Source of the DNA: Escherichia phage ime
Length of the DNA: 64,000 nt
Sequence record: MN850576.1
Reading direction: 5' to 3' (one strand)
Positions 39,355 through 61,545 of the stretch are shown here, one piece after another. The first letter of the stretch is position 1. Each line of letters opens with the position of its first letter. The translations under genes and the position numbers were made by a program. A model generated the notes under the pieces. The model was not told the origin of the DNA and did no database searches. It saw only the letters and a program-made list of their open reading frames with translations.

Positions 39355-39400
39355 GTTCTCCTGAGAAAATTCCTTAGGACTATTTTAACACTTTAGGGAA

Positions 39401-39430
39401 CAAAATGCAAGAACGGAGTCCTTTCCGTTC
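39401..39430 (-). terminator. possible terminator (weak)
   Basis: Hairpin GAACGG...CCGUUC with an interrupted U-run on the minus strand, downstream of the 104-aa gene. Confidence 0.3.
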
Positions 39431-39440
39431 TGACCTTTGT

Positions 39441-39755: not shown

Positions 39756-39766
39756 AACACCTCCTC

Positions 39767-40351: not shown

Positions 40352-40365
40352 GCTAGTCCTCCGAT

Positions 40366-41418: not shown

Positions 41419-43491
41419 TTATGAGAAGTCTGGCGGGACAACATCTTCTACATACCCTTTCAGAGCAACCTGCCCCATATGAAGCACGGTAGAATCTCTA
41501 GCGGTAACAGTGATGCTGTCAGACATTACTTGCGGGTATGCCCACACATACTGTTTTACCTCAGGATATCTATACTCTATAGTTGCCATGTTTCCGCAAA
41601 TACATCTCCATAAAAATTCTTGGTAATTCCTGGTTGGGTCGTAACCATATACCGGAGCAAGCTCTTTACTAGGAACGAACCCTGCAAGGTATTGTATTTC
41701 AGACGGTTGCCAACCTAACTTAACGATAGGTATGTTTACAGACTCTTTTGCCTTTTCAATACCTCCCTGCATCACCCAATCGTAGCACTCGGTGCAGAAG
41801 AAATCAAGAGCACCTGCTTCCTTTTTATATTGGTCAGCAAGGTTAAGCTTTTGCGTAAGCTCGGTTTCCATAATGGTTGGGAAAAACAGCAGAGCTGTCA
41901 TCTGAGCTGATGCAGCGTGTGCCTTTATTGCCTTTGAAATAGCCGCAATACGAGCGCCAAGCTTACCACGACAAAATGCTACATACTTATCGTAAACACC
42001 GCCAGTTTTAGGATCGTCAATAGTCCCAATATCTAATGCATACTCGCCTGTCTCATCATAAAACGCCTGTTTTGTAGGGTAATCATAAATACAAGGTCTA
42101 CGAGTATCGGTATTGTACCACCACCACGGTTCACCAACCTGCATAATCACTGGCAGGTTGTTTCTCATAGCGGCTGATGCAAAATTCTTAAATACTGCAG
42201 TAAGGAAATTCATACCCTCTTCAATGGTTGGAGACAGGAGGTAGCTACAAGGTGTATACCCTGTTTTAGCGTAGTTATCGTTCCAGTCTCTTTGGGTCCA
42301 TTCCAACGGGCAGGCATCGCTGAAAAGCTCAAAACTTACAGATTGCATAACGTCGAAGTTATGTCGTTTGGCATTGTACATAAAATCATCATGCCATTTA
42401 TAAGCTGCAGCGTTTAGCGCTCCTGTTCTGTTTATAGACCATTGGGTTCCTGACCATGTGTAGTCATAATAATGACTCATACCAACATAATGGTTTATGG
42501 TTCCGGTATAGCCCAGACGCTTGATATTGTTCAACACCCTTAAAGGAGACACGTTCCACATATCATCATATGCGGTGCAGATCCCAACATCGTGCTCTCT
42601 CACCTGGATATTGTTAAGTTGCATCATTTTCCAGCCTGTGTCTGGCTGAAGCAGATCTAGGCGCAACTCACACTCTACATTTTCCGTTCTCGGGTCTGTG
42701 CTATTACTTACCCAGTCTTTAGGCATAAGCGGTATTAAAATCCTTCTCACCTGCCGAGGATCAACACCCATCATGCTGTTGTTCTGGTCCATCCCGACGC
42801 AGTCCTCAAAATCAATATGAATTTCTGCAACATTCTTATCCTCTGAGATGCTGACAGCATATTGAGCTAAAGGAACATAGATGATTGTGCCATCAACAAG
42901 GTCTACAGTCATAATCATCTTTTCAGGAGTGGAGAAGTTGCTGGCGTTGGTTATTGACATTCTGAACCAGAGCTTGGTGTTTCTCATCTCATAATGATCA
43001 TCAAACCCAATGCCGAAATGGTCATACTTGTCAACTGTTTCCCAAATGCACCCAGCCATACCTCCATATGTTCTTGACACTAAACGGTTAATACAACAGT
43101 TGTTATCTGCAACAATACAGGTACTTTCAGTCTGCTGAGTAGTTGTAACCCAATATCTTGGGTGGAACATTCTCTCCTCAACAGTATCCCAAGATATCCT
43201 GTCGAGATTCTCATCTGAAACTATTGTACATTTCGCCCTTTGTGTTCCAATCATTACCCCTTGGGATTTTGATGAAAACTCCATAAAGAAGCTTCTTGGT
43301 AACCTGTTGGGTAATTTGTCAACAATTTCCACGGGGATCTCAACACTGGTTGCCCCAATTGGGATAGTTACATCGCCCTCAACATGATTATAATCTCTAC
43401 CAGGAACGGCAGTATCCTGAACTGTTCGGTAATGAAACTGTGCAGCCATTGTAGAGTAATCACGGTAAGGTTTAAAAACAGCTGTTGCCAT
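41419..43491 (-). CDS. structural protein with N-terminal Calx-beta-like domain
   Basis: 690 aa; DYNHVEGDVTIPIGATSVEIPVEIVD fits the Calx-beta signature. Confidence 0.45.
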   Translation of the reverse strand: MATAVFKPYRDYSTMAAQFHYRTVQDTAVPGRDYNHVEGDVTIPIGATSVEIPVEIVDKLPNRLPRSFFMEFSSKSQGVMIGTQRAKCTIVSDENLDRISWDTVEERMFHPRYWVTTTQQTESTCIVADNNCCINRLVSRTYGGMAGCIWETVDKYDHFGIGFDDHYEMRNTKLWFRMSITNASNFSTPEKMIMTVDLVDGTIIYVPLAQYAVSISEDKNVAEIHIDFEDCVGMDQNNSMMGVDPRQVRRILIPLMPKDWVSNSTDPRTENVECELRLDLLQPDTGWKMMQLNNIQVREHDVGICTAYDDMWNVSPLRVLNNIKRLGYTGTINHYVGMSHYYDYTWSGTQWSINRTGALNAAAYKWHDDFMYNAKRHNFDVMQSVSFELFSDACPLEWTQRDWNDNYAKTGYTPCSYLLSPTIEEGMNFLTAVFKNFASAAMRNNLPVIMQVGEPWWWYNTDTRRPCIYDYPTKQAFYDETGEYALDIGTIDDPKTGGVYDKYVAFCRGKLGARIAAISKAIKAHAASAQMTALLFFPTIMETELTQKLNLADQYKKEAGALDFFCTECYDWVMQGGIEKAKESVNIPIVKLGWQPSEIQYLAGFVPSKELAPVYGYDPTRNYQEFLWRCICGNMATIEYRYPEVKQYVWAYPQVMSDSITVTARDSTVLHMGQVALKGYVEDVVPPDFS

Positions 43492-44177
43492 TAACCCTCC
43501 TGTCTAGTTGCGTTTACTGTAATACTTTCACAATAAATGGTTGTGGTGTCCCAATCAGGTCTTACGTCAGGAACATATAGCAAAGTAGCCAGCCCACCAA
43601 CTCCGAATTGGTTTTCTTCCCATACTGATCCGAAGCCAAGAGCTGTAGAGTCCCCTTCAAAACCAAAAGCTTGCCCTTGCGATTCTGTAAGACGCAAATG
43701 ACAAGGCAATGGTAGCATATCTAAGATCTGATCGATAGACTGCAATATGTCAAAGCAAGTTTTTCTAATATTTATGTCAAACCTGAAGTTGTCTCCTTTC
43801 CACGTATCGAAATTGTCTCTTCCGAACAATTGTCGCAAGGTGGAGATGACATCTTCGCGAGTCCCGCCCCTTGATGCTGCGGCCTGCTGAATAATTAGTG
43901 TGGCACGAAAATCAGCATCTGAAAGTCCATTCCTAAGAATACCAAGTTGATTACCAACTTCGTCAAGGTATCTTCCGCTGGCATTGTTAAGCAATCTTCC
44001 TTCAGCCAAACCTACCAGCATCTTATCAACATCCTCCAACCTTTTAAGGTATACGGTTAAGAATGTGACTAAATTAACCTTCTCAGCCAGAAAATCTCCA
44101 GGCAGGTAGTCAAGACCTCCCTGAACAAAATCTGGCAGAGTGTGGATGTGGTTAACATCCGACTTAATCTCTGCCAT
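43491..44177 (-). CDS. putative baseplate protein (gpI-like)
   Basis: 228 aa; immediately downstream of the baseplate J-like gene with start/stop overlap; no diagnostic motif beyond position and size. Confidence 0.4.
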   Translation of the reverse strand: MAEIKSDVNHIHTLPDFVQGGLDYLPGDFLAEKVNLVTFLTVYLKRLEDVDKMLVGLAEGRLLNNASGRYLDEVGNQLGILRNGLSDADFRATLIIQQAAASRGGTREDVISTLRQLFGRDNFDTWKGDNFRFDINIRKTCFDILQSIDQILDMLPLPCHLRLTESQGQAFGFEGDSTALGFGSVWEENQFGVGGLATLLYVPDVRPDWDTTTIYCESITVNATRQEG

Positions 44178-44188
44178 ATCTCGCCGCC

Positions 44189-45679
44189 TTAAATAGTTTG
44201 TTGGAAAGTTATATTACTTTCGTCGAGGTCAAACACCTCAGTCATGTTCGCAACAATATCGTTTGTAGTGTAAGCTTCATCAGAAGCTCCTACGGATTTA
44301 ACTTGAATTACCAGTCTATTAAATCTGCCTATTGACACAGCAGCAGATGCAGCACCTACCAATTGGATATTATACAACGTATCTGCAACATCCAGTCCGT
44401 TAACAACCTGCAAAAGAGCCTCTATAATGGCATCTTTTTCGGTTGTGGAAAGCGCAGCACCGGAGTAGGTAATTCTCATATCCAGGCGGTAGGTATTTGC
44501 CTTGGAGTAATAAATTCTTTCAGTCTGACCGTCAGATGTAGTGACATCGTAGAAAATATTACCATAAGTCCTGTTCGTACAGGCTATAGTTTGGTAAAGT
44601 GCCTGGCAGATATCCTCTGTTGCACCACCAAACACCACCACTTGAAACTTATAAGGTGGTATACCTTTCGCATCCGTTTTATCGGTGTTGTTAGAGAACA
44701 CTCTTACTTTCTCAACACCTTTCACCTCGCTTACAGCGCTAAGGATTGCAGGACGGGTAGCCTTAGATGTTAACTGTTTTGTGCTGGAAGCTCTTAAGCG
44801 ATACTCTGAGTCTTTCTCAACATCCCTGCCCTCATTGAATCTTTCTCTGTTGGTAAGCTTGATAAATCCACTGGGAGTAGGTGACATTGTTGTCACGGTT
44901 TCTGCTTCTCTTGACAGCTCACCAGCCTCGTTAGCGATAACATCCAGTGTGATAGTTCTTTCCCCTACAATCGGGGATACTCTGAAATCTACCCTACTGT
45001 TAAGTCCAACTTGATCAAGATTCGAATTGTACCCTATCCACAACGTTCCTGTCAACATATCGATCTGAATCAAATCGTCGTTCAACAGGGTTGTATTATC
45101 GACAATGAATTGCTTAATCTCTCCGTAAAAGCTTGGCAAATCAGAAGAGTCCAGAGATTTATCTGTTAAAACCAGGCTTTTTGTTTTGATACTTCCATCT
45201 GTCTGGTTGGTAATTTGGAAGTTGTATTTCCCAATCCTTAGGTCTGGAGCATTTATTCTGTGAGCAATAAGATTCCCTGCTACTTGCACATCGTTGCTAA
45301 GAACAAAGTTGCCACTGTCCAGCGTATAAGTTTTGGAATCATAAATCATATTGTACGGCACAGTTGTGTTGATTGTCAACTGGCAGGTACCTGATGATTT
45401 AGAACGGCCTCTTCGGTAAATACCCTGTCTTCCAAGAAGCTCATCTAGGTAGATACCTTCTGCCCCATACAGCGTCTGTGATGCGTATACAGATGCTGCC
45501 ATAAGAATAAGTTGATACTCTCGCTCGTTGAAGATAGTGGTCAGCTTATCTGCAACGGAGTTACTCTGTACGTTGAAGTTTTCGCCAAAAGCACGGATCA
45601 GGCTTTGCTTAGTTTCAACGATTAGGTCATTTAGGGTTGGTATAACGAAACCAGCCTCTGTCAATCCATACTTAGCCAC
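44189..45679 (-). CDS. putative baseplate J-like wedge protein
   Basis: 496 aa; N-terminus MAKYGLTEAGFVIPTL and overall architecture resemble baseplate J-family proteins. Confidence 0.45.
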   Translation of the reverse strand: MAKYGLTEAGFVIPTLNDLIVETKQSLIRAFGENFNVQSNSVADKLTTIFNEREYQLILMAASVYASQTLYGAEGIYLDELLGRQGIYRRGRSKSSGTCQLTINTTVPYNMIYDSKTYTLDSGNFVLSNDVQVAGNLIAHRINAPDLRIGKYNFQITNQTDGSIKTKSLVLTDKSLDSSDLPSFYGEIKQFIVDNTTLLNDDLIQIDMLTGTLWIGYNSNLDQVGLNSRVDFRVSPIVGERTITLDVIANEAGELSREAETVTTMSPTPSGFIKLTNRERFNEGRDVEKDSEYRLRASSTKQLTSKATRPAILSAVSEVKGVEKVRVFSNNTDKTDAKGIPPYKFQVVVFGGATEDICQALYQTIACTNRTYGNIFYDVTTSDGQTERIYYSKANTYRLDMRITYSGAALSTTEKDAIIEALLQVVNGLDVADTLYNIQLVGAASAAVSIGRFNRLVIQVKSVGASDEAYTTNDIVANMTEVFDLDESNITFQQTI

Positions 45680-45750
45680 GTCACTCCTCCGGTATGAAAA
45701 TCTCTACAAGGTATTTTACCAAATTTTGTAACAATAGTCAATCTGAGCAT

Positions 45751-45775
45751 AAAAATAAACCCCGCCGAAGCGGGG
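45751..45775 (-). terminator. rho-independent terminator (minus strand)
   Basis: Minus-strand CCCCGC-UUCG-GCGGGG followed by UUUAUUUUU, just downstream of the J-like gene stop (45785). Confidence 0.55.
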
Positions 45776-45784
45776 CTTTAAAGG

Positions 45785-48700
45785 TTAGTCGTGAGACTCG
45801 TTCCAAGGTCCCTGGAAGCTTGAGTTAGAACGACTAACGATCACAGTGGGACAGGAGATTGTGACACCTGTCACGCTAGACGTTGACCACGGTGTGTAAA
45901 TCTCGACAATAATGTCTATAGTTTGTTCACCTAGACCAGTTATCCCTACCGCACACATGCCGTTGTTGTCGTTTCCGTACTTCTTACCTGCAAGGATTTG
46001 ATGTCCGGCTATCCAAACGTTAAGCTGGGAGCCAGACAATGTCCCGTTTAGTTTAAAGAAGAATGTTACGTTCTTACCTTGTCCTGAAACGTTGTCCACA
46101 TATCTCCACCTCCAACGGCAAACCCTCTGCTGCGAGTTGTATACTGGAGGACAGTCACCGTAGGTTCTGTGTGCAACTATTGCACCTTCGAACTGGTTAG
46201 CACGGATAACAGAAGCTTCTACACGCCCACGGAAGGTACCTCCAGTTGCATCTATGGTACCCCTAAAGTTACCATTATTGGCATAAACATCTCCACGGAA
46301 GGTACCACTGGTGGCGTTAACTGCCCCTGTGAAGTTACCAGAACTGGCGTTGATGTTGCCTTTCACCCACACATCCATAAATTGGGCGTGCCCGTTCTTG
46401 TTAATGTACCAACCGTATTTATGGTACCCGTTGCCATCGTAGTTGTTTGACGAAATTTCTTGTGCGATCTTGGCAGAGGAGATCGTGCCATTCTCTATAA
46501 AAGCGTCTTTCAAGAACGCTTGGTTGTTCTTGATTGCGAAAGCAAGGGTTGCTGTTCCATTTCCAGGGTTGTATACCGCAAAATTGTTTGCACTAACCAT
46601 GAAGTAGGATTGAACTTGTCCTCCAGACCCCTCCATGCCTAGCTGGATACCTGCAACATACTTATTCCCTGCAGAGTCTACCTGAATCTTAGCTCCCCAC
46701 TGAGCATTTATTTTACCCTCAAGTGTTGTTACAGCTTTAGAGGTATTAGATACTGTAGCCCTGAGCTCATCAATATTACCCATTTCGTCAACAATTTCTT
46801 GTTTTGCAGAGGTAAGTTCTTGACGGATCGCTGTGGCTGTATTATTAACAAGATCAACTGTTGTACTATTAGTTTCTTGAATAGATGCTTGCAGATTGGC
46901 AACCTCTTTCTGCACATCATCTTCCAGCTTGGTGATCTTCCCTGTAGCTGCCACCAGATCCTGCTTAATAGCTTCCGTTGTCTTATTTAGCAGATCTGTT
47001 GTTGCCTTGTTGGTTTCTTGAATAGAGGAGTTAAGTTTACTCTCAGTGTTCTTCAACTCTTCCCGCAGAGTACCTTGAGTTGCAGTTATTTGCTCACTCA
47101 ATGCTTGAGTTTTACGATTAACAAGATCAACGGTTGATCTATTTGTTGTCTCGATTAGTGACCCAAGCCTACCAGACTCTGCTGCAAGTTTATCGTCAAA
47201 TGATTGCTGAGCTGCTACCAGCTTACTGTTAAGGGCAGAAATTTCTCCATTAACCCCTGTAAATTTTTCTGTCGTCTCTCTGACAACACCCTCTATTGTA
47301 TCCCCAAGCTCTTCAAAAATGCTAGTAACACGGTCATTGACTGCACCAACATTTTTATCCATTTCCTTGACTGCATTATCAAGATTGGCGGTAAGCTCTT
47401 TATAAGTCTCTGTCTTTTTGAACTCAGCATCAATCTGTGGCATAAGATCTTCTATGGATGTGTAACAGTGGGCTGCACACTCCACAAAAGCAGATGAACC
47501 AAAAGCATTTGTTGTCCTGATATACCAGTAATAAATCTTATCGTTCTGCAGACCTTCAGATGTCCAAGTTGAACCAACACCCATACGAGTGGCTTTTGAA
47601 GTAACGGTTGCATCACTGGTATCTGGCAATCTTGTCATCCCAGATGTCCAAAAGTCGTACTGGGTGCTTACACTAGCCAAGTCTCTGCTGTGCGGGATCA
47701 GGGTAATAGCAAAGTATCCCTGTTTAACTTCTACAGAAACCGGAGCCTCAGGTGCCTGAATGTTAAACTCACAGTATGCTTCTGGAGATACACCACCTTT
47801 ATAAGATGTTGCAACAACAGTGGCTGTGTAGGAACCTTTAGTCAGACCTTCAACACGGACAAACTGCTCAACTGTCTGCGCTGTCCAGACAATCTCTCCG
47901 TTTTTCCTGACCTGCACAATGTTTTGAGCATAAGTCCCAACGTTGTCCCAAGCCAAAACACCGTGAGTTACTTCTCCAGCTTGGAGAACGGAATATCTGA
48001 AGTTTTGCGGTTGAGCTACACCAGATGGAGATATCGGAATATCTACATCGCCAGAATCCGGAAGTTGCCCTGTGGCATCATTCCACTCTTTAGCATCTTG
48101 ACGAAGTTTTACCTTGACACCCCCCTTTTTGGTAAACTCCCATTCAAGAACTCTCATTTCTTGGCCCACTATACCAATACTTGGGAGGTCCATTGTAACG
48201 TAACGACCAGGTTTAAATTTGAAACCTCGCATATTGCAGGTGACTTCAATAATCCTGCCAGCTCTGGCACGTCTTAGGAAGATTGCAGAAACACGCTGAG
48301 CTTGATAAGGACTGGTAACAAAGCGATAGTCTATATCGATTATCTTTCTTTCTCCATCCTTCTCTATCCACTCTGGGACAAACACTGATGGAAAATCTGT
48401 TTCAGAATACCCTTTGGTAGGACTGGTGAATCTGCCAGTTATTGTGTTGGATCTTTTGTCAAATGAGGCTTCCGGATAGATCTTGACCTCACCACAGACA
48501 CAATCCTCACTCAGTGTCATTGTTGCCGGGCCATAGTATGCACCAACCAGCAAACCATACTTACCAGCTACATAGCTGAGATCTGCACCACAAGCTTTCA
48601 GCATTTCTGCCATAATGCTTGCTGGGGCCTCATCCATGTCAAACTCACCGTTAATGGTGTAACGTCGCTCACTGGTTCCGTCAGCGTTTTTTACCGCCTC

Positions 48701-49384
48701 GTCGCATATGTTGGCAGCCTCCTTGAAGGACTCCCAGTTAATGGTTTCGTCAGGACATTTAAGGTACGTTCTTAAATAGTCTAGGATCACCAAGGCCGCG
48801 TTATTGGTATACACCTCTTTACTGATACGAGGATCATAGCATTTTTTACCAACCTTGACAAGTGTAACGTTTGGCAACCCAAAAGGAAACTTGTTAGGGT
48901 CAAACCTGAAGCTGGCACGTAGCCAACTGATCCCTCTACCTATCATGTCGGGTGACCATGATGGGCAGTGTGTACCCATGAAAGGATCAGATGTTTTTCT
49001 GTCGTTATGTAGCTCCCACGATACCAGATCTCCATACGAGGAAATAGGATTACCGTCGATAAGTATATCTTCTATACCTTCCAGAGGGTGATTGGCAAGA
49101 ACAATAGCACAATGGAGGGTTCTGTCGCTATCCTGCTCCAAAAACGCAAGCAATCCGGATGTGCGTGTCTTCCCATACACTACAGAGCAGGGTGCAGCAG
49201 AAGATCTGAGAAGCTTTTGTCTATCTTGCTGACTTCTGTAAGATTTGTTGCCCTCAAAAATCTTATCCAGAGTTCTGGTGGTAACAGTGTTCAGGCTGTC
49301 AGCCAGAGCTGCCTTGGATGCGTTCCAGTCATAACTTGAAGATCTTGCAGAAGCAACGATGTTATCAATCATTGCAATTGGCAT
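45785..49384 (-). CDS. central tail fibre / host specificity protein (lambda J-like)
   Basis: 1199 aa; segments ...APEAPVSVEVKQGYFAITLIPH...YDFW...YYWYIRTTNAFGSSAFVE... and ...KYVAGIQLGMEGSGG...YFMVSANNFAVYNPGNG... resemble the central and C-terminal regions of lambda J as I recall them; long coiled-coil segment. Confidence 0.65.
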   Translation of the reverse strand: MPIAMIDNIVASARSSSYDWNASKAALADSLNTVTTRTLDKIFEGNKSYRSQQDRQKLLRSSAAPCSVVYGKTRTSGLLAFLEQDSDRTLHCAIVLANHPLEGIEDILIDGNPISSYGDLVSWELHNDRKTSDPFMGTHCPSWSPDMIGRGISWLRASFRFDPNKFPFGLPNVTLVKVGKKCYDPRISKEVYTNNAALVILDYLRTYLKCPDETINWESFKEAANICDEAVKNADGTSERRYTINGEFDMDEAPASIMAEMLKACGADLSYVAGKYGLLVGAYYGPATMTLSEDCVCGEVKIYPEASFDKRSNTITGRFTSPTKGYSETDFPSVFVPEWIEKDGERKIIDIDYRFVTSPYQAQRVSAIFLRRARAGRIIEVTCNMRGFKFKPGRYVTMDLPSIGIVGQEMRVLEWEFTKKGGVKVKLRQDAKEWNDATGQLPDSGDVDIPISPSGVAQPQNFRYSVLQAGEVTHGVLAWDNVGTYAQNIVQVRKNGEIVWTAQTVEQFVRVEGLTKGSYTATVVATSYKGGVSPEAYCEFNIQAPEAPVSVEVKQGYFAITLIPHSRDLASVSTQYDFWTSGMTRLPDTSDATVTSKATRMGVGSTWTSEGLQNDKIYYWYIRTTNAFGSSAFVECAAHCYTSIEDLMPQIDAEFKKTETYKELTANLDNAVKEMDKNVGAVNDRVTSIFEELGDTIEGVVRETTEKFTGVNGEISALNSKLVAAQQSFDDKLAAESGRLGSLIETTNRSTVDLVNRKTQALSEQITATQGTLREELKNTESKLNSSIQETNKATTDLLNKTTEAIKQDLVAATGKITKLEDDVQKEVANLQASIQETNSTTVDLVNNTATAIRQELTSAKQEIVDEMGNIDELRATVSNTSKAVTTLEGKINAQWGAKIQVDSAGNKYVAGIQLGMEGSGGQVQSYFMVSANNFAVYNPGNGTATLAFAIKNNQAFLKDAFIENGTISSAKIAQEISSNNYDGNGYHKYGWYINKNGHAQFMDVWVKGNINASSGNFTGAVNATSGTFRGDVYANNGNFRGTIDATGGTFRGRVEASVIRANQFEGAIVAHRTYGDCPPVYNSQQRVCRWRWRYVDNVSGQGKNVTFFFKLNGTLSGSQLNVWIAGHQILAGKKYGNDNNGMCAVGITGLGEQTIDIIVEIYTPWSTSSVTGVTISCPTVIVSRSNSSFQGPWNESHD

Positions 49385-50952: not shown

Positions 50953-51016
50953 TGTGCCTCCAGGTTAAACAATCATGATAGTTATTTTACCAGATTTTGA
51001 GTTAATACGCAATACA

Positions 51017-51044
51017 AACAAAAAGCCCCCGCCGAAGCGAGGGC
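51017..51044 (-). terminator. rho-independent terminator (minus strand)
   Basis: Minus-strand GCCCUCGC-UUCG-GCGGGGGC followed by UUUUUGUUUG, downstream of the 110-aa gene. Confidence 0.5.
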
Positions 51045-51050
51045 AATACT

Positions 51051-54300: not shown

Positions 54301-55822
54301 GCTGACCAGTAAGATCCCCAACCTGCATATATTTAGGGCAGTCTAATACGCCGTCTTCGCGGAAACCTAAATATTTATGAGTTTCAGATCCTTTTGCACC
54401 TTTGTGCAGGTGGATTGTCAGCCAAGCCTTATTGTCGTTTCTTACCTCAGAGTAGATCCTATATCCATGCTCAAGAACACCATCGGTGTTATATTTATCT
54501 CCATGGAGAATACCTGAGGCCGATTTAACATCTCCAGAGTATTGAGCTAAGTAAAGGTGCCCGAAGGCTGGCGAGTTGTTTTTACCAAGGCCAATATGAG
54601 ATCTAAAGGTATCATCGTTACGAGGTCTGACCATCGGCTGCCATGCAGTCCACTGATTTGTGTTGGCCTGATAGGTTCTCAAATACCAAACATCTACGTT
54701 AGAGAATGGATAGTATTCCTGACGACAACCTGTACCTCCGTTAGCATTGTTCTGCCAAACAATCAAGTGACCAGCACCAGAACCTGCAGGGTAACCATTT
54801 GCCTCAGTTGCATAAGCAGTCATTGGCTGGTAGTATACACCATCCTGATTACCAGTCAAGTTATTGATATTGAAATTTGGCTCAAGGGCTGCACGTTGCT
54901 TATAGAAAGCACCGATATTGATACGGACTCCAGCGGCATCTCTAGCCCCTGTGCCGCCTTGCTCTATAGCAAGAGGTTGCCACGAAGCTGTTTGTTGGTT
55001 CCACATACCCCAACGGCCTGTTGCATCAAGCTGCAAGTACCCTGCCGTATTTAAATCATCTCCAGCACGGATAACTGTTCTTGTTGGGTTGTTTGCCTCT
55101 AGGCGTTTAAATTCATCACGAAGTGCTATTCTTTTCGTTGTTGCTACACCGTTGGTTACTGCAATGGTGTACATGGCTCCGGTGGTAGCGCCACGGAAAA
55201 TACCATCAACAGTTGTAGTATCACGACGAGACACCACACCGTTCAGAAATTTTTCACCAGCTGCTACAGAAGGGTAGTTGGTAGTTCTTCCCTCTTCAAT
55301 AACTGCAGGGCCAACAAAGTTATCAAGGTGAATAACATCGCCTACAGTGTGCACTGTACCAAAATCTACACGCTGTGCAAGTGCTTTGGCATCGTTAGCT
55401 GTCTGAACAGTAACATCCATTACATCCTGGACAGACTGCCCTTCGGCTGTCATGATCATAGATGCGCCAATGGTAGATTCCAGCTCCTCCCTTAAGGACG
55501 GGTCAGTATATACCATCCATGCAGCGTCAGTAATCCCACCATCGGAGTACGGTGAAGACAGTGCAGGAACAGTGTGTGGAAATTCGCCTTTCCAACGCAG
55601 GTAGAGGTCTTCCTCTTCGAAGTAGGCAAAATCCATTGGGCCGTTTAACTTACCACCTTCCTTAAAGGAGATTACATGAGAAACAGTCCCATCAACATGG
55701 ACAACATCGCCAATTTTTACACGACGGGTCAGGTCTGGTTGTTGAACAACCAGGTAATCATCCTCTGTCACTGAGGTAGTGGCAGGAAGAGATTCAATTC
55801 TGACAACTTTAATATCAGCCAT
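51383..55822 (-). CDS. giant tail fibre / tailspike-like protein with C-terminal ConA/LamG-like domain
   Basis: 1479 aa; N-terminal about 110 aa paralogous to ORF 58457..59125; internal repeats containing W.PL...GGTGA and GTGC.Q.Y; C-terminal ...GERHLFGHIKDIRVWNSALTDTQL resembles LamG-type lectin domains. Confidence 0.55.
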   Translation of the reverse strand: MADIKVVRIESLPATTSVTEDDYLVVQQPDLTRRVKIGDVVHVDGTVSHVISFKEGGKLNGPMDFAYFEEEDLYLRWKGEFPHTVPALSSPYSDGGITDAAWMVYTDPSLREELESTIGASMIMTAEGQSVQDVMDVTVQTANDAKALAQRVDFGTVHTVGDVIHLDNFVGPAVIEEGRTTNYPSVAAGEKFLNGVVSRRDTTTVDGIFRGATTGAMYTIAVTNGVATTKRIALRDEFKRLEANNPTRTVIRAGDDLNTAGYLQLDATGRWGMWNQQTASWQPLAIEQGGTGARDAAGVRINIGAFYKQRAALEPNFNINNLTGNQDGVYYQPMTAYATEANGYPAGSGAGHLIVWQNNANGGTGCRQEYYPFSNVDVWYLRTYQANTNQWTAWQPMVRPRNDDTFRSHIGLGKNNSPAFGHLYLAQYSGDVKSASGILHGDKYNTDGVLEHGYRIYSEVRNDNKAWLTIHLHKGAKGSETHKYLGFREDGVLDCPKYMQVGDLTGQLTNWGLGEWIRSSGAERGFWGSKKAAKMVIWDGGMDESGNGALEWGVYNNRKAKWEPLPQAAGGTGATTLADAQNLFKVPIAAGVKDFLTLPRTAGMEDGKYYPIIVRTDPYYAPATGTDITIVTRSSSGGDPMNCATLQCHYRTGGWTDRGDSFYGVVNFYQNEKAILGMVAPTRGKQEYVAFYAEARAFPVSIYASRNVVEVFTREQDYQVGSVTDNQDGVKFVAPLQSADLNLAVLGDNNTNTRPIVDFKGTSGFYTGGGTQWHYIGTAERYAVMSKMNMPKVELWADGLDYLCYGSPRKALFSNAGFQCASDGTEDLTNGTFTSKCGNGAGLKGQAEFRSTPEAGQVIVRDVVGSAHRFYNFNKDGTFSAPGGFVCHTGADWNNQFGNNNPSKIMAGNVNGPEGSMVVGGLSVAFSGNYAFQIAGRLDQLYTRSIEQGNHRAWNKVIQHRGQGLGNSDLNDYKADREGIYHQEANANATAERHYPPGQQMAGTLIVLRNSANEGTGCIQIYKMYLGGTWERYYNNTGSGMAWSPWKRTSFPESTTAPVMPDLWLPLTSNLKPALGEGEMVFSRPSTATYFSKRGVMVTAQNDQPRFERDGLLIEGQRTNLMLNSEDPSKWGAQQAITVGSTVTNTNGTKGARFTVNTTSGVETTALNLAVVPATRGADVTGDEKFCTGSIIARGGKAHQRLRIRFDMYDGSTTTYQGDAYVNLSTLEVKTTGGAAGRIKVKAERWQTAGPAWTRVVATFEAVASDRKIGCQFQIAPPESSQHAVGDWVDVAIPQFELGSCESSFIPTGSSPVTRAADLCKFPMTDNLAPRPFTIAATVDANWRGWGKAPNAAPRVIDTEGHQSGAAFIMGFGSATNIADDGYPYCDIGGSNRRVYEMAKVRKLKVGFRIKDDGKTCSFANGLVSSETQSSWEFLAGGAFIRIGGQTATGERHLFGHIKDIRVWNSALTDTQLMMESVE

Positions 55823-55857
55823 TCTTTCTCCTGAAAGGGGGCAAACAGCCCCCTATG

Positions 55858-58455
55858 TTAAAGGTACAATCCACGGTATTGAGCATAGAGGCCCAGACCG
55901 CGAAGGATTTCGCCAGAGTGATAGCCTACCGGATCAGAAACTGCCCAGCAGCCGTTTAAAACATTATCCCCATTAATGAAGTGGTGCTTTTGCAGTAGCT
56001 TCACACAGGCCTCTACAACAATATCTATTTGAGGTATTGTCTCTGAATACCCGCACAGACCTAGCCAGCAGCAACCTGCAAGCCATTCACCTACCACCCA
56101 CATCCTGTCCCCTCTGTCTTGATAAGAATATCCCCCAGAGGTGTTAAAGTCTGTAGGCAGATTTCCTGAATGAGATGACTGGAATCTGTTGAGGAACCAT
56201 GCCCATTTCTGGCAGAACAGGAACAGTCTTTCATCAACAGGTTCTTTATGTTTCTTGAGCTCATATATTGTGCGGCACGCAGCAACAAAAGATCTTGACT
56301 GGAGCTTAGAGTTATCTACCATCTCCCACCAACCAGTCAACCCTTCATTACCTCTCTGCCATACATAACGTGAGGCAACTGGACCCTCTGTCTTAAATGT
56401 ATTATTATACCAGACTTGAGCGTCATACAGAAAGCCTATTGTATTTGACAATCTATGGCGATCTATGTTTTCTGCACCCATGCAGTAGACTGCTGGGTAT
56501 TGCATGCCTGGGTAGGGCCAATTTGGCCTTTCCTCTAAGAGATAGTTTTCCTTATCTATCACCTTTCCGGCAGGGAACACACCTGGTGTGTGCCTGTATG
56601 CACCTTGCTTGTAGTTTCTAACATAGCAATCACCAACCTTAGCGGTTGATTCTGTCTTGCTTGCCATCCATACGCTAAACCAGATTAGATAAGCATCCCT
56701 ATCTGCAATATAGAATTGCGGCAGTGTGTTGACGCAATATAGATCAAACAAGCCATTACCTATCTGCCTGTCGCTTAGGGTGAAATCTACAGAGGTGAGT
56801 CCCTTAGGATTAGCAAAGAAAGGTTTAATCTCTTCTTCAGTGTGATGAGGTTGTGTCGGATCTAGTTTGAAATCTCCTAGAGTAAGAGTTTCTGTTATCC
56901 ATTGTCCATTAGTGGCATATAGATCAGCATACCATAACCACCTGTCTTTGTCAAGAAATTTGACCCTTACCATCTCATCATCTGATCGATAAGTTACTGA
57001 GTTTAAAGAAATCTCTCTTCCAAAATTGAAAGTTACTTTGCCTCTTGCTATATTACAACGGGTGAAGTTGTCAGAGTGGTTGTAAATGTCAGTAGCGTAC
57101 TGCATACTAACACTGGCACCACCGCTCACGGCAATATTTTCCTCTTTAGGTAAAAGGTACGGATTACCGTCTTTACCAACTACCTCTACGAAATCAGTAA
57201 CCTTGGCAACTATTTCTGTTACCTCTGCCCCTCCAAAAGGAACCCCTATCCTGTACTGTTTTTTGTTATTGTTGCCATCATTAAGGATGAAATGTGGCTG
57301 GAACAGAACCCCTTCTCCTCCGAAATTCATAACAATTTCAGCATCTCTGCCTATTTTGTATGTAGTCCCTTTTTGAATTATTTCGCAAGGCTGGCGTGCG
57401 TTCATTCTAAAGTTGATATACCCGTCACTGTCTCTGCTCATGACAGGAACTGTTCCTGCAACAAGACAAGTACCGTCTGTAAACGGTGCCTTAATCAACG
57501 TGGTCTTTCTAAACAGCTTGTCGTAGGCGTTTATATCACTGAAATTAAGCAACTTGTTGTAAGACTGTTTAAATGCGGTGTAATACTTTTCCTCACCTGT
57601 CAAGGTGTAGAGTTGATAACAAGCGTCACACCACATTTCTTCCCCGTCCAACTCTGGGGCCTGATTATCTGCAACCACGTTTATAGGATTTACAATTACA
57701 GGGGATCCAGCAGGTATCACCGATCCGCCCTGCTCTTGAGGTAATCTTACACAATAGGTCACCTTGTGGCTGCCTGTAACACCCTTATCTTGTAATTGGA
57801 TTGTGCCGAACTCTACAGACGTATGACCACTGTCGGCTATGCTACCGTTAGCCCAATAGCGGTTACCATCCCATGCTATGTACCACTCAACCCACCAACT
57901 TAATCCGGATGTTGTCCAATCTGGGTTAGCATCTGTGCCACCGTAAACATCAGAGTCTACAGTGTTTCTTCCTAACACACCGTTATACGCTTGGAATGCC
58001 TTGTCCAGGTATTCCCCCCATGTCGGAGATCCAGCTGGGATTTTTCCTCTACCGTTGGTAAAAGACACCACCACATCTTTAAACCCACCGTGTGATGGAA
58101 CCCCATCTGTGGATAGAGGGTAGTGGGACAATCTTTGCATTTTACTTTCTACGGCATATGCACCCAGAAGATGACTATTGTAAGCTTCCCAAGCATCTTT
58201 TGCCCTATCCAGATAGAAATCGCTTTTCGATGCCCTATATGCTTCAATGTATCCCAGAATCAACACAGCTTGGGACTCATGCATTGCCCAATCATTATTT
58301 ATCTTATTACCTGCCCACCCTGCAGCTATAAGACCATCAGGGTTTACTAGCTTATTTTGTGTAGGGGTGTTGGTAATACCTGTGTTGTTATCGAGGCACT
58401 TCCTGTGCCCCTCAATCATCTGAAATACGTTATCAATGTTGTGTTGAATACGCAT
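55858..58455 (-). CDS. putative polysaccharide-degrading tailspike (alpha/alpha-toroid glycoside hydrolase-like)
   Basis: 865 aa; aromatic-rich W/Y repeats at both ends suggest an (alpha/alpha)6-type hydrolase fold with a beta-rich insertion; AGGAG RBS inside the end of the upstream gene. Confidence 0.4.
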   Translation of the reverse strand: MRIQHNIDNVFQMIEGHRKCLDNNTGITNTPTQNKLVNPDGLIAAGWAGNKINNDWAMHESQAVLILGYIEAYRASKSDFYLDRAKDAWEAYNSHLLGAYAVESKMQRLSHYPLSTDGVPSHGGFKDVVVSFTNGRGKIPAGSPTWGEYLDKAFQAYNGVLGRNTVDSDVYGGTDANPDWTTSGLSWWVEWYIAWDGNRYWANGSIADSGHTSVEFGTIQLQDKGVTGSHKVTYCVRLPQEQGGSVIPAGSPVIVNPINVVADNQAPELDGEEMWCDACYQLYTLTGEEKYYTAFKQSYNKLLNFSDINAYDKLFRKTTLIKAPFTDGTCLVAGTVPVMSRDSDGYINFRMNARQPCEIIQKGTTYKIGRDAEIVMNFGGEGVLFQPHFILNDGNNNKKQYRIGVPFGGAEVTEIVAKVTDFVEVVGKDGNPYLLPKEENIAVSGGASVSMQYATDIYNHSDNFTRCNIARGKVTFNFGREISLNSVTYRSDDEMVRVKFLDKDRWLWYADLYATNGQWITETLTLGDFKLDPTQPHHTEEEIKPFFANPKGLTSVDFTLSDRQIGNGLFDLYCVNTLPQFYIADRDAYLIWFSVWMASKTESTAKVGDCYVRNYKQGAYRHTPGVFPAGKVIDKENYLLEERPNWPYPGMQYPAVYCMGAENIDRHRLSNTIGFLYDAQVWYNNTFKTEGPVASRYVWQRGNEGLTGWWEMVDNSKLQSRSFVAACRTIYELKKHKEPVDERLFLFCQKWAWFLNRFQSSHSGNLPTDFNTSGGYSYQDRGDRMWVVGEWLAGCCWLGLCGYSETIPQIDIVVEACVKLLQKHHFINGDNVLNGCWAVSDPVGYHSGEILRGLGLYAQYRGLYL

Positions 58456-58456
58456 C

Positions 58457-59125
58457 TTAGATAGCTCCTGCGATAATCAGTGCCCCGTACCAAGTTAACC
58501 CGTTGTCGTAGGTTTCCAACTTGAAAATGTCTGTTGCACCAGCTGTAAATGTTAGGATAGGATCTCTTCCGTAGGACCATTTAACATTACCAGGCCAATA
58601 GACTTTGTTGCCGCCAGAGGTCTGAGTAATGCATACGGTTATAGTTCTCGCCACCCCTTCAAGACCTTCTGTTTGATTTTCAAAAGAGATTGTGGTATTT
58701 GAAGTTAGTCGAACCTTAAAGGTATCCGCAACTTCAAGATCCATATCAAGCTGACCACCGATAGATCCGTAATCAACTATTCTGCCAGAAGAAGTTGCAG
58801 CAAGCTCACCAAAAACAGACCAGGCATTTGCAGACACACCCCCAGCACCCTCTACAGTGGAGTCTGGGAGGATTATTTTAGGATAATCCCCGTTCCACGT
58901 GTAGTAGCGCTTAGTTTCTGGATCATAAGCAAAGTCCTTCTTGCTCTTAAGATAACCACCCTCTGTGAAATAGACTATTTTAGTAATGCTGAGATCGTTG
59001 ACAACATCATCAATCTTAGCCTTTCTTGTCCCATCAGTCTGGTTGACAACCAAGAAGTCATCACTCAGGACTGTTTCTGCATCTTCAAGATCTGGAATTG
59101 GTATTGTAGGATAAGCTACAGCCAT
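58457..59125 (-). CDS. fibre/spike anchor-domain protein (N-terminal domain paralogous to 1479-aa fibre)
   Basis: 222 aa; shares LP...DD[FY]LVV.Q.D.TR..KI.DVV...FAY...Y.W.G[DE][YF]P with the N-terminus of the 1479-aa protein. Confidence 0.5.
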   Translation of the reverse strand: MAVAYPTIPIPDLEDAETVLSDDFLVVNQTDGTRKAKIDDVVNDLSITKIVYFTEGGYLKSKKDFAYDPETKRYYTWNGDYPKIILPDSTVEGAGGVSANAWSVFGELAATSSGRIVDYGSIGGQLDMDLEVADTFKVRLTSNTTISFENQTEGLEGVARTITVCITQTSGGNKVYWPGNVKWSYGRDPILTFTAGATDIFKLETYDNGLTWYGALIIAGAI

Positions 59126-59134
59126 GATTTCTCC

Positions 59135-59851
59135 TTAGTTAACATCGATAGCACGACCAGACTGGTTGGCAATAGCCTCATCATTGGAGGTAGCAATAAC
59201 ACCAGAGTATTCGCGCTCATCTGGAGCAAGCGTCCAGGTATTGCGGTTAATGGTTTGTTCTGCCTCAGTCATCAGCAGATCTTTATCCTGAGTCAACAGA
59301 GAGCCTACAGGGATCGGGTTTTCCATCTCAGGACCAGCATACTGGTTCCACCATGTGGCATCTCCGGTTCTAGGCAATCTGAAGTTGATCAGGTAGTACA
59401 GTTTATTAGCCCACTTAATCCAACCTTCATCATCACAGAGAGAGGTTGTCCCAGAATCAGGCTGTGGGTAGGTAAACTGATCAAGACCTACAAAAGCCAG
59501 CCTTACAATCTCGTTCTCTTTGGTAACAACCTCAAAGAACGCTTGGTATGTTCTCGATCTTCGATCCATGGTAGACTGGAAGTTTACGATGTTTAGCACA
59601 TCCGGCTCTTGTCTTGCCACTTCCATAATCTTGTTATCAAGAACAGTCTTCATGACCTTCTTACTGAGAAAGTCCATATAAGGGAAGCCAAACAACTCGT
59701 CAAAGTACCAGCTCCCCTTCCACGTATTAAACCTCATCCACAAGCGCTGGCGTAGACTTACCTGGTTTGAATCTATCAACTCAAGACCTTTGTCTATCGC
59801 CAAATCGCCTGTCTGTGGGTCCATCAATATATCACTATAAAGCGTAGCCAT
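59135..59851 (-). CDS. putative baseplate wedge protein (gp25/gpW-like)
   Basis: 238 aa; N-terminal ...DPQTGDLAIDKGLELIDSNQVSLRQRLWMRFNTWKGSWYFDELFGFPY resembles the gp25/gpW signature; C-terminal extension. Confidence 0.4.
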   Translation of the reverse strand: MATLYSDILMDPQTGDLAIDKGLELIDSNQVSLRQRLWMRFNTWKGSWYFDELFGFPYMDFLSKKVMKTVLDNKIMEVARQEPDVLNIVNFQSTMDRRSRTYQAFFEVVTKENEIVRLAFVGLDQFTYPQPDSGTTSLCDDEGWIKWANKLYYLINFRLPRTGDATWWNQYAGPEMENPIPVGSLLTQDKDLLMTEAEQTINRNTWTLAPDEREYSGVIATSNDEAIANQSGRAIDVN

Positions 59852-59863
59852 GAAAGCCCTCTA

Positions 59864-60541
59864 TTAGTGCGGTCCACTTGTCTCGCCATCAGGGCAAGAG
59901 TGGGTATGACCTTTATATTCTGCATAGAATGAATCCAAATCCACGCCAGCAGCAGTTATAATTCTACCAGATGGGTCTATTGTAGCACCATTCATTCTGA
60001 TATTCCCATCCACAGCAGCTCGCAAATTGGCAGCCCCGTTAGTGAAAGAAAACTCCCCGCTGCTGTCGCACCGTAATGTCCCACCAGGTGTTTGAAGCTC
60101 AAAATCGCCAGAAGGTGTCAGTTTAAAATAAACCCTATCATTCCATAACTCTACGTTATCAGGATCGATCTGTAAGGAGTTTGAGTCTGAATGAACAGAG
60201 GTGATTGCCCACCCTGGAAACAGGCCGTGAGTTTGTTGATCGTCGTTATTGTTTTCATTTCTCTCTGAAAACTGCAATCCTACAACATCTCCAGCCTTAA
60301 TAGGGAGTGTTAACCTTGCCTTTCCGCTGTTTGCAGACATCACCTGAATTGGAACGTCATAGATAAGAGGGTATCTCTCCACATCTCCGTCATCAAACGT
60401 AGTTTCAGCTATTGGCTGCACGGCTGCAGAAGGTATACTGTAGTCTACACTGACAACTCTGGCCCTGATACTGGTGTGGTAGTCCCTCATTATTTTTTCT
60501 ATAAAAGATCTTACAGCAGCATCTTTCCTATTTATTGCCAT
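59864..60541 (-). CDS. putative baseplate central spike (gpV-like)
   Basis: 225 aa; C-terminal ...YKGHTHSCPDGETSGPH resembles the H.H...G..T..P tip of P2 gpV-type spikes as I recall it. Confidence 0.5.
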   Translation of the reverse strand: MAINRKDAAVRSFIEKIMRDYHTSIRARVVSVDYSIPSAAVQPIAETTFDDGDVERYPLIYDVPIQVMSANSGKARLTLPIKAGDVVGLQFSERNENNNDDQQTHGLFPGWAITSVHSDSNSLQIDPDNVELWNDRVYFKLTPSGDFELQTPGGTLRCDSSGEFSFTNGAANLRAAVDGNIRMNGATIDPSGRIITAAGVDLDSFYAEYKGHTHSCPDGETSGPH

Positions 60542-61545
60542 TATACCTCCTCAGTTTTGTCAACAACTCCACCCACTGTTTCCCCAAGGCCAAGCTCTGT
60601 AGTGTAATCACCACCTTCTATGGTGCCCTTATGATGCACCGTGATCACCTTATAGAAGCCTGTATATTGCTTGCTTTTAAGATAAATAGTGGACTCTGGG
60701 AGGATAGCTCCGTTAAGGCATGTGGTTACAGTAAGGCCAACATCCTCTCTCGGGTTTTTCTTTTTCTTTTTAGATGTCGAACCACCTTTGGCAGCAGCTT
60801 TAGCTTTTCGTTTTTTAGCAGGTTCTGGGTTTTTAGGGGTAGGAGATCCGTGCATCCCAGACTCTGCACTTATTTCAAACACAGAGTCTTTGAACCTTTT
60901 TCCAACCTTGGTCCAATACAAAGCCCCATCCTGAACGCTAAATGTTGAGTTGGTCAGCCTTGCAAACCTGCGGAGGTTCTCTGCAGTGTTTCCAGAGAAA
61001 GCCATAGAGTATTGCAAAGTCTGGTTTCCAAAACCAACAACCCTACCTTTTGGCAAGTTCATATCCTTCAGTAGGTCATTAAGCACAGAGTTCAGAGGTG
61101 TGCCTTTCTGATAAGATCTTGTGCTTTGGCACTTAATGATGTTCTCAGTGCCATCCCCAAAGATGAACTTAGTTTTTCTGGTAGGACCTTCCCATCTGTC
61201 TTCAACAAACTCCACAGTTCCGGAGAATATCAACTGGTTCTCATTATCATAGCCAGCTTCAAACATAACTGCAAGGGCATCAGCCTGATGCATATCCAAG
61301 TAGTTAACTGTATCGTCAGACAGGTTGTAAACTGTCACATAACCTTTGTTTGGCTCTTTGGTATTGTCCTTTTGTATGTCAAACTCTATATTGGCGGCAC
61401 CAGTGTCCGAGCTAACTTCATAAACTCCGGAATCACTCTCCCCTTTCTTTTCAACAGATTTTGGGATATTGGTTTTTGATTTGCCGCCATGTTCTACAGG
61501 ACGACCAAACAATAATCGCCATGTTCTACGTCTGTACTCTGCCAT
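60541..61545 (-). CDS. putative baseplate hub protein (gpD-like)
   Basis: 334 aa; position upstream of the gpV-like gene and size fit a gpD/Mu gp44-type hub; contains a K-rich stretch. Confidence 0.35.
   Translation of the reverse strand: MAEYRRRTWRLLFGRPVEHGGKSKTNIPKSVEKKGESDSGVYEVSSDTGAANIEFDIQKDNTKEPNKGYVTVYNLSDDTVNYLDMHQADALAVMFEAGYDNENQLIFSGTVEFVEDRWEGPTRKTKFIFGDGTENIIKCQSTRSYQKGTPLNSVLNDLLKDMNLPKGRVVGFGNQTLQYSMAFSGNTAENLRRFARLTNSTFSVQDGALYWTKVGKRFKDSVFEISAESGMHGSPTPKNPEPAKKRKAKAAAKGGSTSKKKKKNPREDVGLTVTTCLNGAILPESTIYLKSKQYTGFYKVITVHHKGTIEGGDYTTELGLGETVGGVVDKTEEV

Follow-up and report, generated by a model that had tools for sequence, protein, structure and literature searches.

The closest described counterparts of the tail locus considered here are the contractile baseplates of phages phiTE (structures 9CUY and 9MJN; PMC11972413) and phi92 (21VQ). 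Both contain the same seven core proteins in the same order. Iron is coordinated by HxH motifs in the phi92 spike (PMC13450770), and in phiTE nothing lies between the genes for the sheath initiator and wedge 2. We analyzed a 64,000-nucleotide stretch of Escherichia phage ime (sequence record MN850576.1; the whole stretch is called the window below), in which the same seven genes occur but are interrupted at this junction by eight others. The 18-kb region from wedge 1 to the hub (43491-61545) was examined together with its flanks. Four of the eight genes encode a lambda J-like protein of 1199 amino acids (aa) and three small partners. These are read here as a tail-tip cassette captured from a siphophage, whose products would now serve in adhesion.

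The phage itself belongs to a well-sampled group. By megablast, the 18-kb region matched vB_Eco_Alma at 99.5% identity and 100% coverage, and 112 phage records each gave one match spanning at least 80% of the region at 90–99.5% identity. At least 95% identity was reached in 103 records, and nearly all of the 112 are E. coli rV5-like phages. CarlMeissner (Bas48), a relative with 97.5% identity, is classified in Vequintavirinae; Vequintavirus. It carries its tail sheath and tube genes directly upstream of the tape measure, a position that lies beyond the window end here, and the rV5 tail was found to be contractile by electron microscopy (EM; PMC3606486). Every gene of the region is on the minus strand, and no tRNA genes were found within the window. 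By homology, the window is thus assigned to a known myophage, an rV5-like Vequintavirus of E. coli, and the region to its baseplate and receptor-binding gene cluster. We regard the identity of the region, and the origin of the cassette described below, as close to certain. An assembly error that joined myophage and siphophage sequence was considered as an alternative source of the mosaic, and no point in its favour was found. The arrangement recurs, as single collinear pieces, in 112 genomes sequenced independently, and GC content is uniform (0.43–0.47) across the region, so that a chimera can practically be dismissed. About 18–22 GenBank records (MG0656xx) named 'Campylobacter phage' are 97–98% identical to this E. 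coli rV5-like locus, which suggests mislabelled or contaminant genomes.

The sheath-initiator/wedge junction and its cassette

Eight genes (222, 865, 1479, 110, 196, 188, 145 and 1199 aa) occupy positions 45785-59125, between the sheath initiator and wedge 2. They are listed below in order of transcription.

58457-59125, minus strand: 222-aa fibre adaptor with a TSP1/gp66-type N-terminal domain (Pfam Tail_spike_N, E 2e-10; phrog_7760, tail fibre protein; 41% identity to PVP-SE1 gp050)
55858-58455, minus strand: 865-aa lateral fibre/tail protein (phrog_2871; 34–35% identity over full length to the PVP-SE1 and PaulScherrer fibre genes at the same site)
51383-55822, minus strand: 1479-aa chimeric fibre (Pfam Tail_spike_N at residues 46–103; NCBIfam GTA_spike_fiber at residues 1113–1317)
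51051-51383, minus strand: 110-aa protein accompanying the fibre (phrog_1361; 30% identity to the small open reading frame (ORF) after the VogelGryff lateral fibre gene)
50362-50952, minus strand: cassette gene 1, Dit-like, 196 aa (phrog_1302 'distal tail protein', E 5e-50; 31% identity to the VogelGryff gene directly after the tape measure)
49809-50375, minus strand: cassette gene 2, predicted gpL-like tube-fold hub protein, 188 aa (AlphaFold2 (AF2) model and Foldseek; 38% identity to the VogelGryff neighbour)
49384-49821, minus strand: cassette gene 3, DUF6950 protein in the lambda gpK position, 145 aa (Pfam DUF6950, E 4e-33; 45% identity to the VogelGryff 'putative minor tail protein')
45785-49384, minus strand: cassette gene 4, J-like tail-tip/central-fibre protein, 1199 aa (Pfam Ig_J, Ig_J_second and Phage_Tail_Tip)

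The same junction was compared in related phages, using local tblastn for phiTE, UPEC06, PVP-SE1, KPP-1 and PaulScherrer and the gene map alone for ESCO9. All core baseplate proteins were found in the five tblastn loci, at 25–71% identity. In the fetched loci of phiTE (Certrevirus) and UPEC06, wedge 2 directly follows the sheath initiator. Three fibre genes are present at the junction in PVP-SE1 (Seunavirus), five genes in KPP-1 (Mydovirus), six in the phi92-like phage PaulScherrer and five annotated genes in ESCO9. This comparison shows the junction to be a hot spot, where the number of fibre genes ranges from 0 to 6 among related genera. The 222-aa adaptor and the 865-aa fibre have tblastn matches in PVP-SE1 and PaulScherrer, while the 196-, 188-, 145- and 1199-aa proteins have no homologue at E<1e-3 in the five loci. 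Because the fibre genes recur in the loci of relatives while homologues of the cassette were not found there, the eight-gene block is better read as two parts, hot-spot fibre genes and one captured four-gene cassette. An earlier reading of the window, made from sequence only, had described a single inserted block; eight genes do interrupt the baseplate set, but they are not best read as one unit. Among the lineages checked, the four-gene unit is, as far as homology indicates, present only in Vequintavirus.

The last four genes encode, in order, the Dit-like, gpL-like, DUF6950 and J proteins, which is the order of the genes that follow the tape measure in Seuratvirus-type siphophages (31–57% identity). 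A tblastn search of phage genomes with the 145- and 196-aa proteins returned two sets of matches, one at 90% identity or above (Vequintavirus) and one below 60%. Among the matches sampled from the second set, the genomes were 39–85 kb in size, with Seuratvirus and Nonagvirus foremost. In the Seuratvirus VogelGryff, a tape measure of 1038 aa is followed by proteins of 194, 194 and 144 aa and a 'J-like tail tip protein' of 879 aa, and the four window proteins are 31%, 38%, 45% and 54% identical to these in turn. A wider set of 82 loci was assembled from 80 loci found in an IMG/VR scan with a DUF6950 alignment, together with VogelGryff and Vibrio phage K381. In 77 of the 82, the four genes occur in sequence as Dit-like, gpL-like, DUF6950 and J. 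The ORF directly upstream of the cassette had a median length of 983 aa, the size of a tape measure, and was at least 500 aa long in 63 of the 77 loci with an ORF called upstream of the Dit-like gene. Further upstream, 21 diverse loci encode lambda-type tail tube proteins, tail assembly chaperones, terminators and gpZ, and no sheath family was among the 25 families listed upstream of the cassette in these loci.

Homology and gene order together show the cassette to be a tail-tip module that follows the tape-measure gene in siphophages and prophages, and its closest versions to be those of E. coli Seuratvirus and Nonagvirus phages. The normal home of the cassette would be a non-contractile tail, and the transfer therefore went from siphophage to myophage. 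In the window, it follows fibre genes and a terminator/promoter unit instead; the tape measure is 11 kb away and is succeeded by a myophage tube initiator. The four proteins are 92–100% identical across the genus, in more than 110 genomes. Next to the cassette lies a second siphophage-like element. Residues 1060–1478 of the 1479-aa fibre are 44% identical to the lateral tail fibre of VogelGryff, and its N-terminus is the TSP1/gp66-type anchor also found in the 222-aa adaptor. These similarities suggest that a Seuratvirus-like phage was the source of a central and a lateral adhesin in Vequintavirus.

The cassette is delimited by two regulatory units.

50983-51044, minus strand: terminator-like hairpin (51025-51044) and late promoter with a TGGTAAAATA box (50983-50998), opening the cassette (rV5 Table S4 t041 and P040)
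45712-45778, minus strand: terminator hairpin (45757-45778) and late promoter (45712-45727), closing the cassette and driving the wedge genes (rV5 Table S4 P036)

The two strongest minus-strand terminator-like hairpins of the region are located in its only two sizeable intergenic gaps (~100 nt each), and it is these gaps that flank the cassette. Each hairpin is followed by the 16-nt sequence AAAATNTGGTAAAATA, which occurs only twice in the window, and the two flanking promoters are the most alike of the late promoters. The same terminator/promoter unit precedes wedge 2 in PVP-SE1, KPP-1 and phiTE. The cassette is more safely regarded as an independent late transcription unit that has one promoter and one terminator; on the same comparison, it is placed just ahead of the presumed ancestral wedge promoter. 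The possibility that the two units are a duplication made by the insertion was considered and dropped, since TGGTAAAATA is the general late-promoter box of rV5, with 8 sites listed in rV5 Table S4. Far from the tail genes, at 19328-19340 (minus strand), the core of the terminator hairpin, CGCTTCGGCGGGG, recurs as a third identical copy.

Proteins of the cassette and of the contractile baseplate

The J-like protein was recognized by several profiles. Pfam Ig_J_second (E 3e-30) and Phage_Tail_Tip (E 3e-38) matched, Ig_J scored below its curated cut-off, and NCBIfam lambda_TipJ matched with E 4e-45, also below cutoff. Among PDB sequences, lambda J (8iyk_J) was matched over residues 666–831 and the central fibre, with E 3e-27. 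Residues 48–717 of the window protein align with VogelGryff J at 54% identity, the whole N-terminal region included. Pfam Phage-tail_3, the J hub domain, was not detected at E<0.1 in the window J, and it is borderline in the scanned siphophage J homologues (21.7–24.5 bits, the cut-off being 23). Residues 1–660 gave a poor AF2 model (predicted local distance difference test (pLDDT) 60). Foldseek searches with this low-confidence model nevertheless returned lambda gpJ (E 2e-23), DT57C and T5 pb3 (E to 8e-20) over the full length at a template modelling (TM) score of ~0.27, as well as the tail-tip proteins of T1, JBD30 and Chi. A hub fold of the J N-terminus is therefore likely, as judged from this model.

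C-terminal to the Ig-like region, J has an expanded coiled coil (~residues 660–870) and a C-terminal domain of ~160 aa. This domain is 92–100% conserved within the genus and ~30% identical to the J end of siphophage JenK1. J length varies in the genus, from 1199 aa here to 1279–1283 aa in rV5 and two IMG/VR contigs. The difference probably sits in diverged coiled-coil repeats of ~40 aa; Tandem Repeats Finder detected no DNA-level tandem repeats in the coiled-coil region. The sequence-only reading had called the 1199-aa protein lambda J-like and its companions small tip-assembly-like proteins. Both descriptions agree with the matches above, the companions being the three genes that precede J in siphophages. 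For the profiles that bear on J, Ig_J_second and Phage_Tail_Tip were found, but Phage-tail_3, which that reading had listed for checking, was not.

The 196-aa protein is named 'distal tail protein' in the RefSeq annotation of rV5 as well as by PHROG. Pfam, PDB and hhalign gave no support for a Dit assignment (36 family members were Pfam-scanned), and hhalign of the family against the window's own tube initiator gave nothing significant. A search for homologous proteins with the 196-aa sequence returned just 7, all near-identical.

For the 188-aa protein, an AF2 model built on an alignment of 104 sequences had a pLDDT of 90.9. Foldseek matched the model to the N-terminal hub domain of T5 pb3 (E 1e-6, TM 0.60), lambda gpL (8iyk_L, TM 0.59) and the hub chain of the gene transfer agent RcGTA (6tba_7A, TM 0.56), and also to a JBD30 baseplate chain and the T1 and Chi tip chains. 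Myophage hubs, including that of phiTE, were matched more weakly. The modelled fold identifies this product as a gpL-type tube-fold hub protein. Weak matches to the baseplate hub family PF09931 were found by Pfam in 3 of 35 gpL-like family members. Lambda gpL carries iron-sulfur cluster cysteines. The 188-aa protein has two cysteines, but no conserved cysteine column was present in the gpL-like family alignments, and the gpL iron-sulfur cluster is therefore not expected here.

In the DUF6950 family, WG..DCC and RGD motifs are invariant, and no histidine is conserved after the RGD motif. Comparison of the family with lambda gpK, a C40 peptidase, gave a weak hhalign match (E 0.011) around the WG..DC motif. 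Otherwise, hhalign of the three small family alignments against lambda gpM, gpL, gpK and gpI found nothing significant, PDB profile searches with the three families were empty, and NCBIfam gave nothing for the three proteins. No gpI-like gene is present in the cassette.

In contrast to the cassette, the surrounding genes belong to a contractile tail. A PDB sequence search was performed with a concatenated query of the seven core baseplate proteins, which matched separate chains of the phiTE baseplate (9CUY/9MJN) and phi92 gp135-139, gp145 and gp146 (21VQ). PHROG labels in the region include 'baseplate hub' and 'baseplate wedge subunit'.

62927-64000, minus strand: tape measure, C-terminal part, the gene leaving the window (phrog_5255, E 4.5e-123; the homologous coding sequence of CarlMeissner is annotated tape measure)
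61938-62822, minus strand: tube initiator, 294 aa, the tail's own Dit-like ring (Pfam Dit_like, E 2.4e-22; phiTE 9cuy_K 'Tube initiator', E 4.5e-43; phi92 gp135)
61545-61925, minus strand: baseplate plug/spacer, 126 aa (Pfam Pam3_gp18, E 2.9e-18; 9mjn_df / 9cuy_N 'Spacer protein', E ~4e-24; phi92 gp136)
60541-61545, minus strand: baseplate hub of gpD / Mu gp44 type, 334 aa (phrog_196, E 2.3e-83; 9cuy_X 'Hub protein', E 5e-108; phi92 gp137, E 1.4e-49)
59864-60541, minus strand: central spike with a C-terminal HxH apex motif, 225 aa (Pfam PF18352 N-terminal domain, E 1.4e-9; 9cuy_Y, E 1e-58; 3pqi phi92 gene product 138, E 1.5e-17)
59135-59851, minus strand: sheath initiator, gp25/W-like, 238 aa (9mjn_d6 'Sheath initiator protein', E 3e-59; phi92 gp139; phrog_120, E 6e-21)
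44189-45679, minus strand: wedge 2, Baseplate_J / gp6-like, 496 aa (Pfam Baseplate_J, E 4e-9; 9cuy_T 'Wedge 2 protein', E 6e-157; phi92 gp145, E 7e-55)
43491-44177, minus strand: wedge 1, gpI / gp7-like partner, 228 aa (9mjn_dh 'Wedge 1 protein', E 4e-65; phi92 gp146, E 6e-22; phrog_4056 baseplate protein)

A complete simple contractile baseplate is shown by these homologies to be encoded, comprising a tube initiator, plug, hub, predicted iron-binding spike, sheath initiator, wedge 1 and wedge 2. Most of this had been anticipated from the letters alone. The limits proposed for the region, 43491 and 61545, coincide exactly with gene boundaries, and the gpD, gpV, gp25/W, J and I assignments are borne out by the phiTE chains (9cuy/9mjn; E 6e-157 to 1e-58) and the phi92 chains (21vq). 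The spike does end in ...GHTHSCPDGETSGPH, as had been stated, and the HxH motif is present there, read as HTH. The proposed order after the tape measure (hub, spike, W-like protein, eight genes, J-like and gpI-like proteins) is correct, but the tube initiator and plug had been omitted from it.

Proposed role of the cassette products in the virion

The rV5 orthologue of J, gp37, was detected in purified virions by mass spectrometry (MS), with four peptides that include GYSETDFPSVFVPEWIEK of the hub region (PMC3606486). The detection of gp37 but not gp38-40 is compatible with an alternative in which J alone is structural, as an ordinary trimeric side fibre attached through its N-terminal domain, and the 196-, 188- and 145-aa proteins are assembly factors that remain outside the virion, which would leave the particle with no tail-tip-like complex. 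The authors of RBPseg likewise treat the J-like protein as a plain elongated fibre (PMC12143355). However, MS that identified 19 proteins would miss small, low-copy ones. Lambda gpK, encoded at the same position as the DUF6950 protein, is said to be absent from the mature tail, which again agrees with this alternative. The 188-aa protein, on the other hand, shares its modelled fold with stable structural components of solved tail tips (lambda gpL, the N-terminus of T5 pb3 and the hub of GTA), and all four genes are retained at 92–100% identity across the genus under one promoter and one terminator. A structural role for J alone is thus unlikely, although it is the strongest of the competing explanations.

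Two features of the cassette suggest that its role has changed. In 20 siphophage J homologues (50–60% identical), the first ~45 residues are Ala/Gly/Ile-rich and hydrophobic, with 1–3 charged residues and a maximum 19-residue Kyte-Doolittle value of 1.45–2.54. The first 48 residues of the window J contain 10 charged residues and reach a maximum of only 0.31, although the start itself is alike (MPIAMI, compared to MPPAII in the siphophage homologues). The second feature is excess divergence of the small proteins. Among 461 siphophage pairs whose J hubs are 50–62% identical, median identity is 50% for the Dit-like and 51% for the gpL-like protein, with a gpL-like minimum of 43.5%. In 19 window-siphophage pairs of the same J divergence, these identities fall to 32% and 35% and do not exceed 39.6%, which puts the gpL-like figure below the siphophage minimum. 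The DUF6950 protein is less affected in the same comparison. Together, the hydrophilic start of J and the unexpectedly low identity of the Dit-like and gpL-like proteins suggest that the cassette products have changed from conducting DNA to acting as an accessory in adhesion. They are compatible with a complex that has stopped docking to the tube and tape measure of a siphophage and has no need of a membrane-active element.

On balance, the best explanation overall is that a captured cassette has become a peripheral accessory adhesin, and we favour it with moderate confidence. The cassette would have been captured from a siphophage on the Vequintavirus stem. Its products may assemble into a small tail-tip-like complex, with a Dit-like ring and trimers of the gpL-like protein and J, in which neither tape measure nor tube takes part. 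Such a complex could be mounted on the baseplate periphery or on another fibre as an extra adhesin, and the complex would no longer open a DNA channel; as in phiTE and phi92, DNA would be delivered by the contractile tube together with the hub and spike. The peripheral location of the complex is, in our estimate, about evenly balanced. It is a more tentative proposal that the whole siphophage tip complex is carried as a side appendage that has lost its membrane-active N-terminus, so that a DNA-delivery organelle has been turned into a receptor-binding fibre. Cryo-EM of Bas49 and Bas54 revealed density with no assigned protein on the head of one fibre (PMC12143355), and a tip complex carried as a side appendage could account for this extra density at the end of a Vequintavirus fibre.

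Several observations weigh against a peripheral tip complex. The rV5 gp38-40 proteins were not among the 19 proteins of a virion MS analysis of low sensitivity, in which gp37 itself gave just 4 peptides (PMC3606486), and no more than three fibres were located close to the baseplate by the cryo-EM of Bas49 and Bas54 (PMC12143355). The Dit label of the 196-aa protein is based on a PHROG name and gene position, and the fold match of the J N-terminus leans on local 3Di similarity (pLDDT 60, TM ~0.27). The pairs in the divergence comparison are phylogenetically non-independent, which makes that result an indication, and the membrane role of the siphophage J hydrophobic N-terminus is putative.

A location on the tail axis, with the J complex within or around the hub-spike assembly as a hybrid central tip, was also considered. 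J-family proteins are axial in every solved siphophage, and hub-like HHpred matches of gp37 were noted in the rV5 paper (PMC3606486). However, the axis of phiTE and phi92 is filled by the tube initiator, hub and spike, with the tip of the spike exposed, and homologues of this full set are encoded in the window. Both of those phages function with no J homologue, and no tape-measure gene goes with the cassette. An axial complex is accordingly very improbable.

Host-factor screens of Vequintavirus on K-12 have identified the ECA/NGR glycan, recognized through the N4 gp65-like fibre, and the lipopolysaccharide (LPS) core, and no outer-membrane protein receptor was named. Because this published work implicates the glycan and the LPS core alone, the J fibre is probably accessory on K-12. 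The same screens would be consistent with a cassette that is a passenger, an evolutionary relic that serves neither the virion nor infection. Yet its ORFs are intact, its proteins are 92–100% identical across more than 110 genomes, a dedicated late promoter precedes it and J peptides are found in virions, all of which make a passenger highly unlikely. The accessory adhesin remains the preferred explanation.

Neighbouring fibre genes and comparison with known systems

Further fibre genes are located downstream of wedge 1. The adjacent gene (41419-43491, minus strand) encodes a 690-aa protein with Pfam NCTSP_N and TIM-barrel_NCTSP domains, of the N4 gp65 'non-contractile sheath' family, and is proposed to be the ECA/NGR glycan-binding fibre. 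This gene follows wedge 1 here but is inside the sheath-initiator/wedge hot spot in phi92-like phages (42% identity). At 38308-41406 (minus strand) are two short tail fibre paralogues of 348 and 346 aa, each assigned to phrog_4465, separated by a tail fibre assembly gene of the lambda gpK family (194 aa, Pfam Caudo_TAP) and a 104-aa ORF. At 30592-36226 (minus strand), the gene for an 1878-aa 'lateral tail fibre with intimin domain' (the counterpart of rV5 gp27) is broken, relative to CarlMeissner, by a 2-bp deletion at ~33071. Two overlapping ORFs, 1055 and 852 aa long, result, and the deletion is either a real truncation or a sequencing error.

The locus has been sequenced and annotated in more than 100 genomes, and both its J-like annotation and the hub-like gp37 N-terminus are on public record (GenBank; PMC3606486; PMC12143355). 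In the literature, no paper was found in which the four genes are treated as a tail-tip cassette acquired by capture or their Vequintavirus-only distribution is reported, nor one on the lost hydrophobic N-terminus of J or the place of J on the Vequintavirus virion. The sequence-only reading had judged the co-occurrence of myovirus- and siphovirus-type proteins to be unusual. This is true among myophages, but the combination is constant in this much-sequenced genus and annotated in GenBank, and for this known group the mosaic is nothing out of the ordinary.

Phages of the rV5 type are isolated on E. coli more often than most others, and their broad host recognition makes them candidates for therapy and biocontrol. 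A captured tail-tip unit offers a concrete model for fitting existing cryo-EM maps, and the four-gene cassette is a clean unit for deletion or swapping in host-range engineering. A multi-protein structural module that crosses tail morphotypes and switches its job also bears on the modularity of phage tail evolution.

Within the genus, rV5, vB_Eco_Alma, CarlMeissner/Bas48, FFH2 and LL12 have the same locus gene for gene, at 96–99.5% nucleotide identity. The genes correspond to rV5 gp35-gp49, with J (gp37) annotated 'tip attachment protein J' or 'central tail fiber J'. Vequintavirus relatives differ allelically only, as in J (1199 aa compared to 1279 aa in rV5) and the 1479-aa fibre (96% to CarlMeissner). 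Beyond the genus, the baseplates of phiTE and phi92 share the seven core proteins and their order with the window, at 25–71% identity in the related genomes compared, and the HxH motif of the phi92 iron site recurs in the window spike. phi92-like phages also have fibre genes at the junction that is empty in phiTE, but lack the Dit-like, gpL-like, DUF6950 and J genes.

The tail tip of lambda (8IYK/8K35) shares the Ig-like domains and the central-fibre domain with the window J by sequence, and has the same gene logic of small proteins followed by J. The receptor-binding end of J differs, however, and lambda gpM, gpL and gpI have no sequence-level similarity to the small window proteins, with a gpI equivalent missing; gpL does share its fold with the 188-aa protein (TM 0.59). 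In RcGTA (6TBA), the baseplate genes are g12 (Dit), g13 (hub), g14 (peptidase) and g15 (megatron). This four-gene logic of Dit, hub, small peptidase-like and large J-like proteins resembles that of the cassette. The RcGTA particle is non-contractile and the relation is distant, with no sequence similarity detected beyond the fold shared by the 188-aa protein and 6tba_7A and the PF09931 matches.

The closest counterpart of the cassette is found in VogelGryff (bas25_0017-0020), which has the same four genes in the same order with similar lengths, and whose J shares the layout of hub, Ig/FN3 domains, coiled coil and tail-tip fibre. Compared to VogelGryff J, the window J has a hydrophilic N-terminus, a longer coiled coil and the extra C-terminal domain of ~160 aa, and compared to the Seuratvirus-type cassette, the Dit-like and gpL-like proteins are unusually diverged. 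The siphophage cassette follows the tape measure and closes a non-contractile tube, whereas that of the window follows fibre genes and has a promoter of its own.

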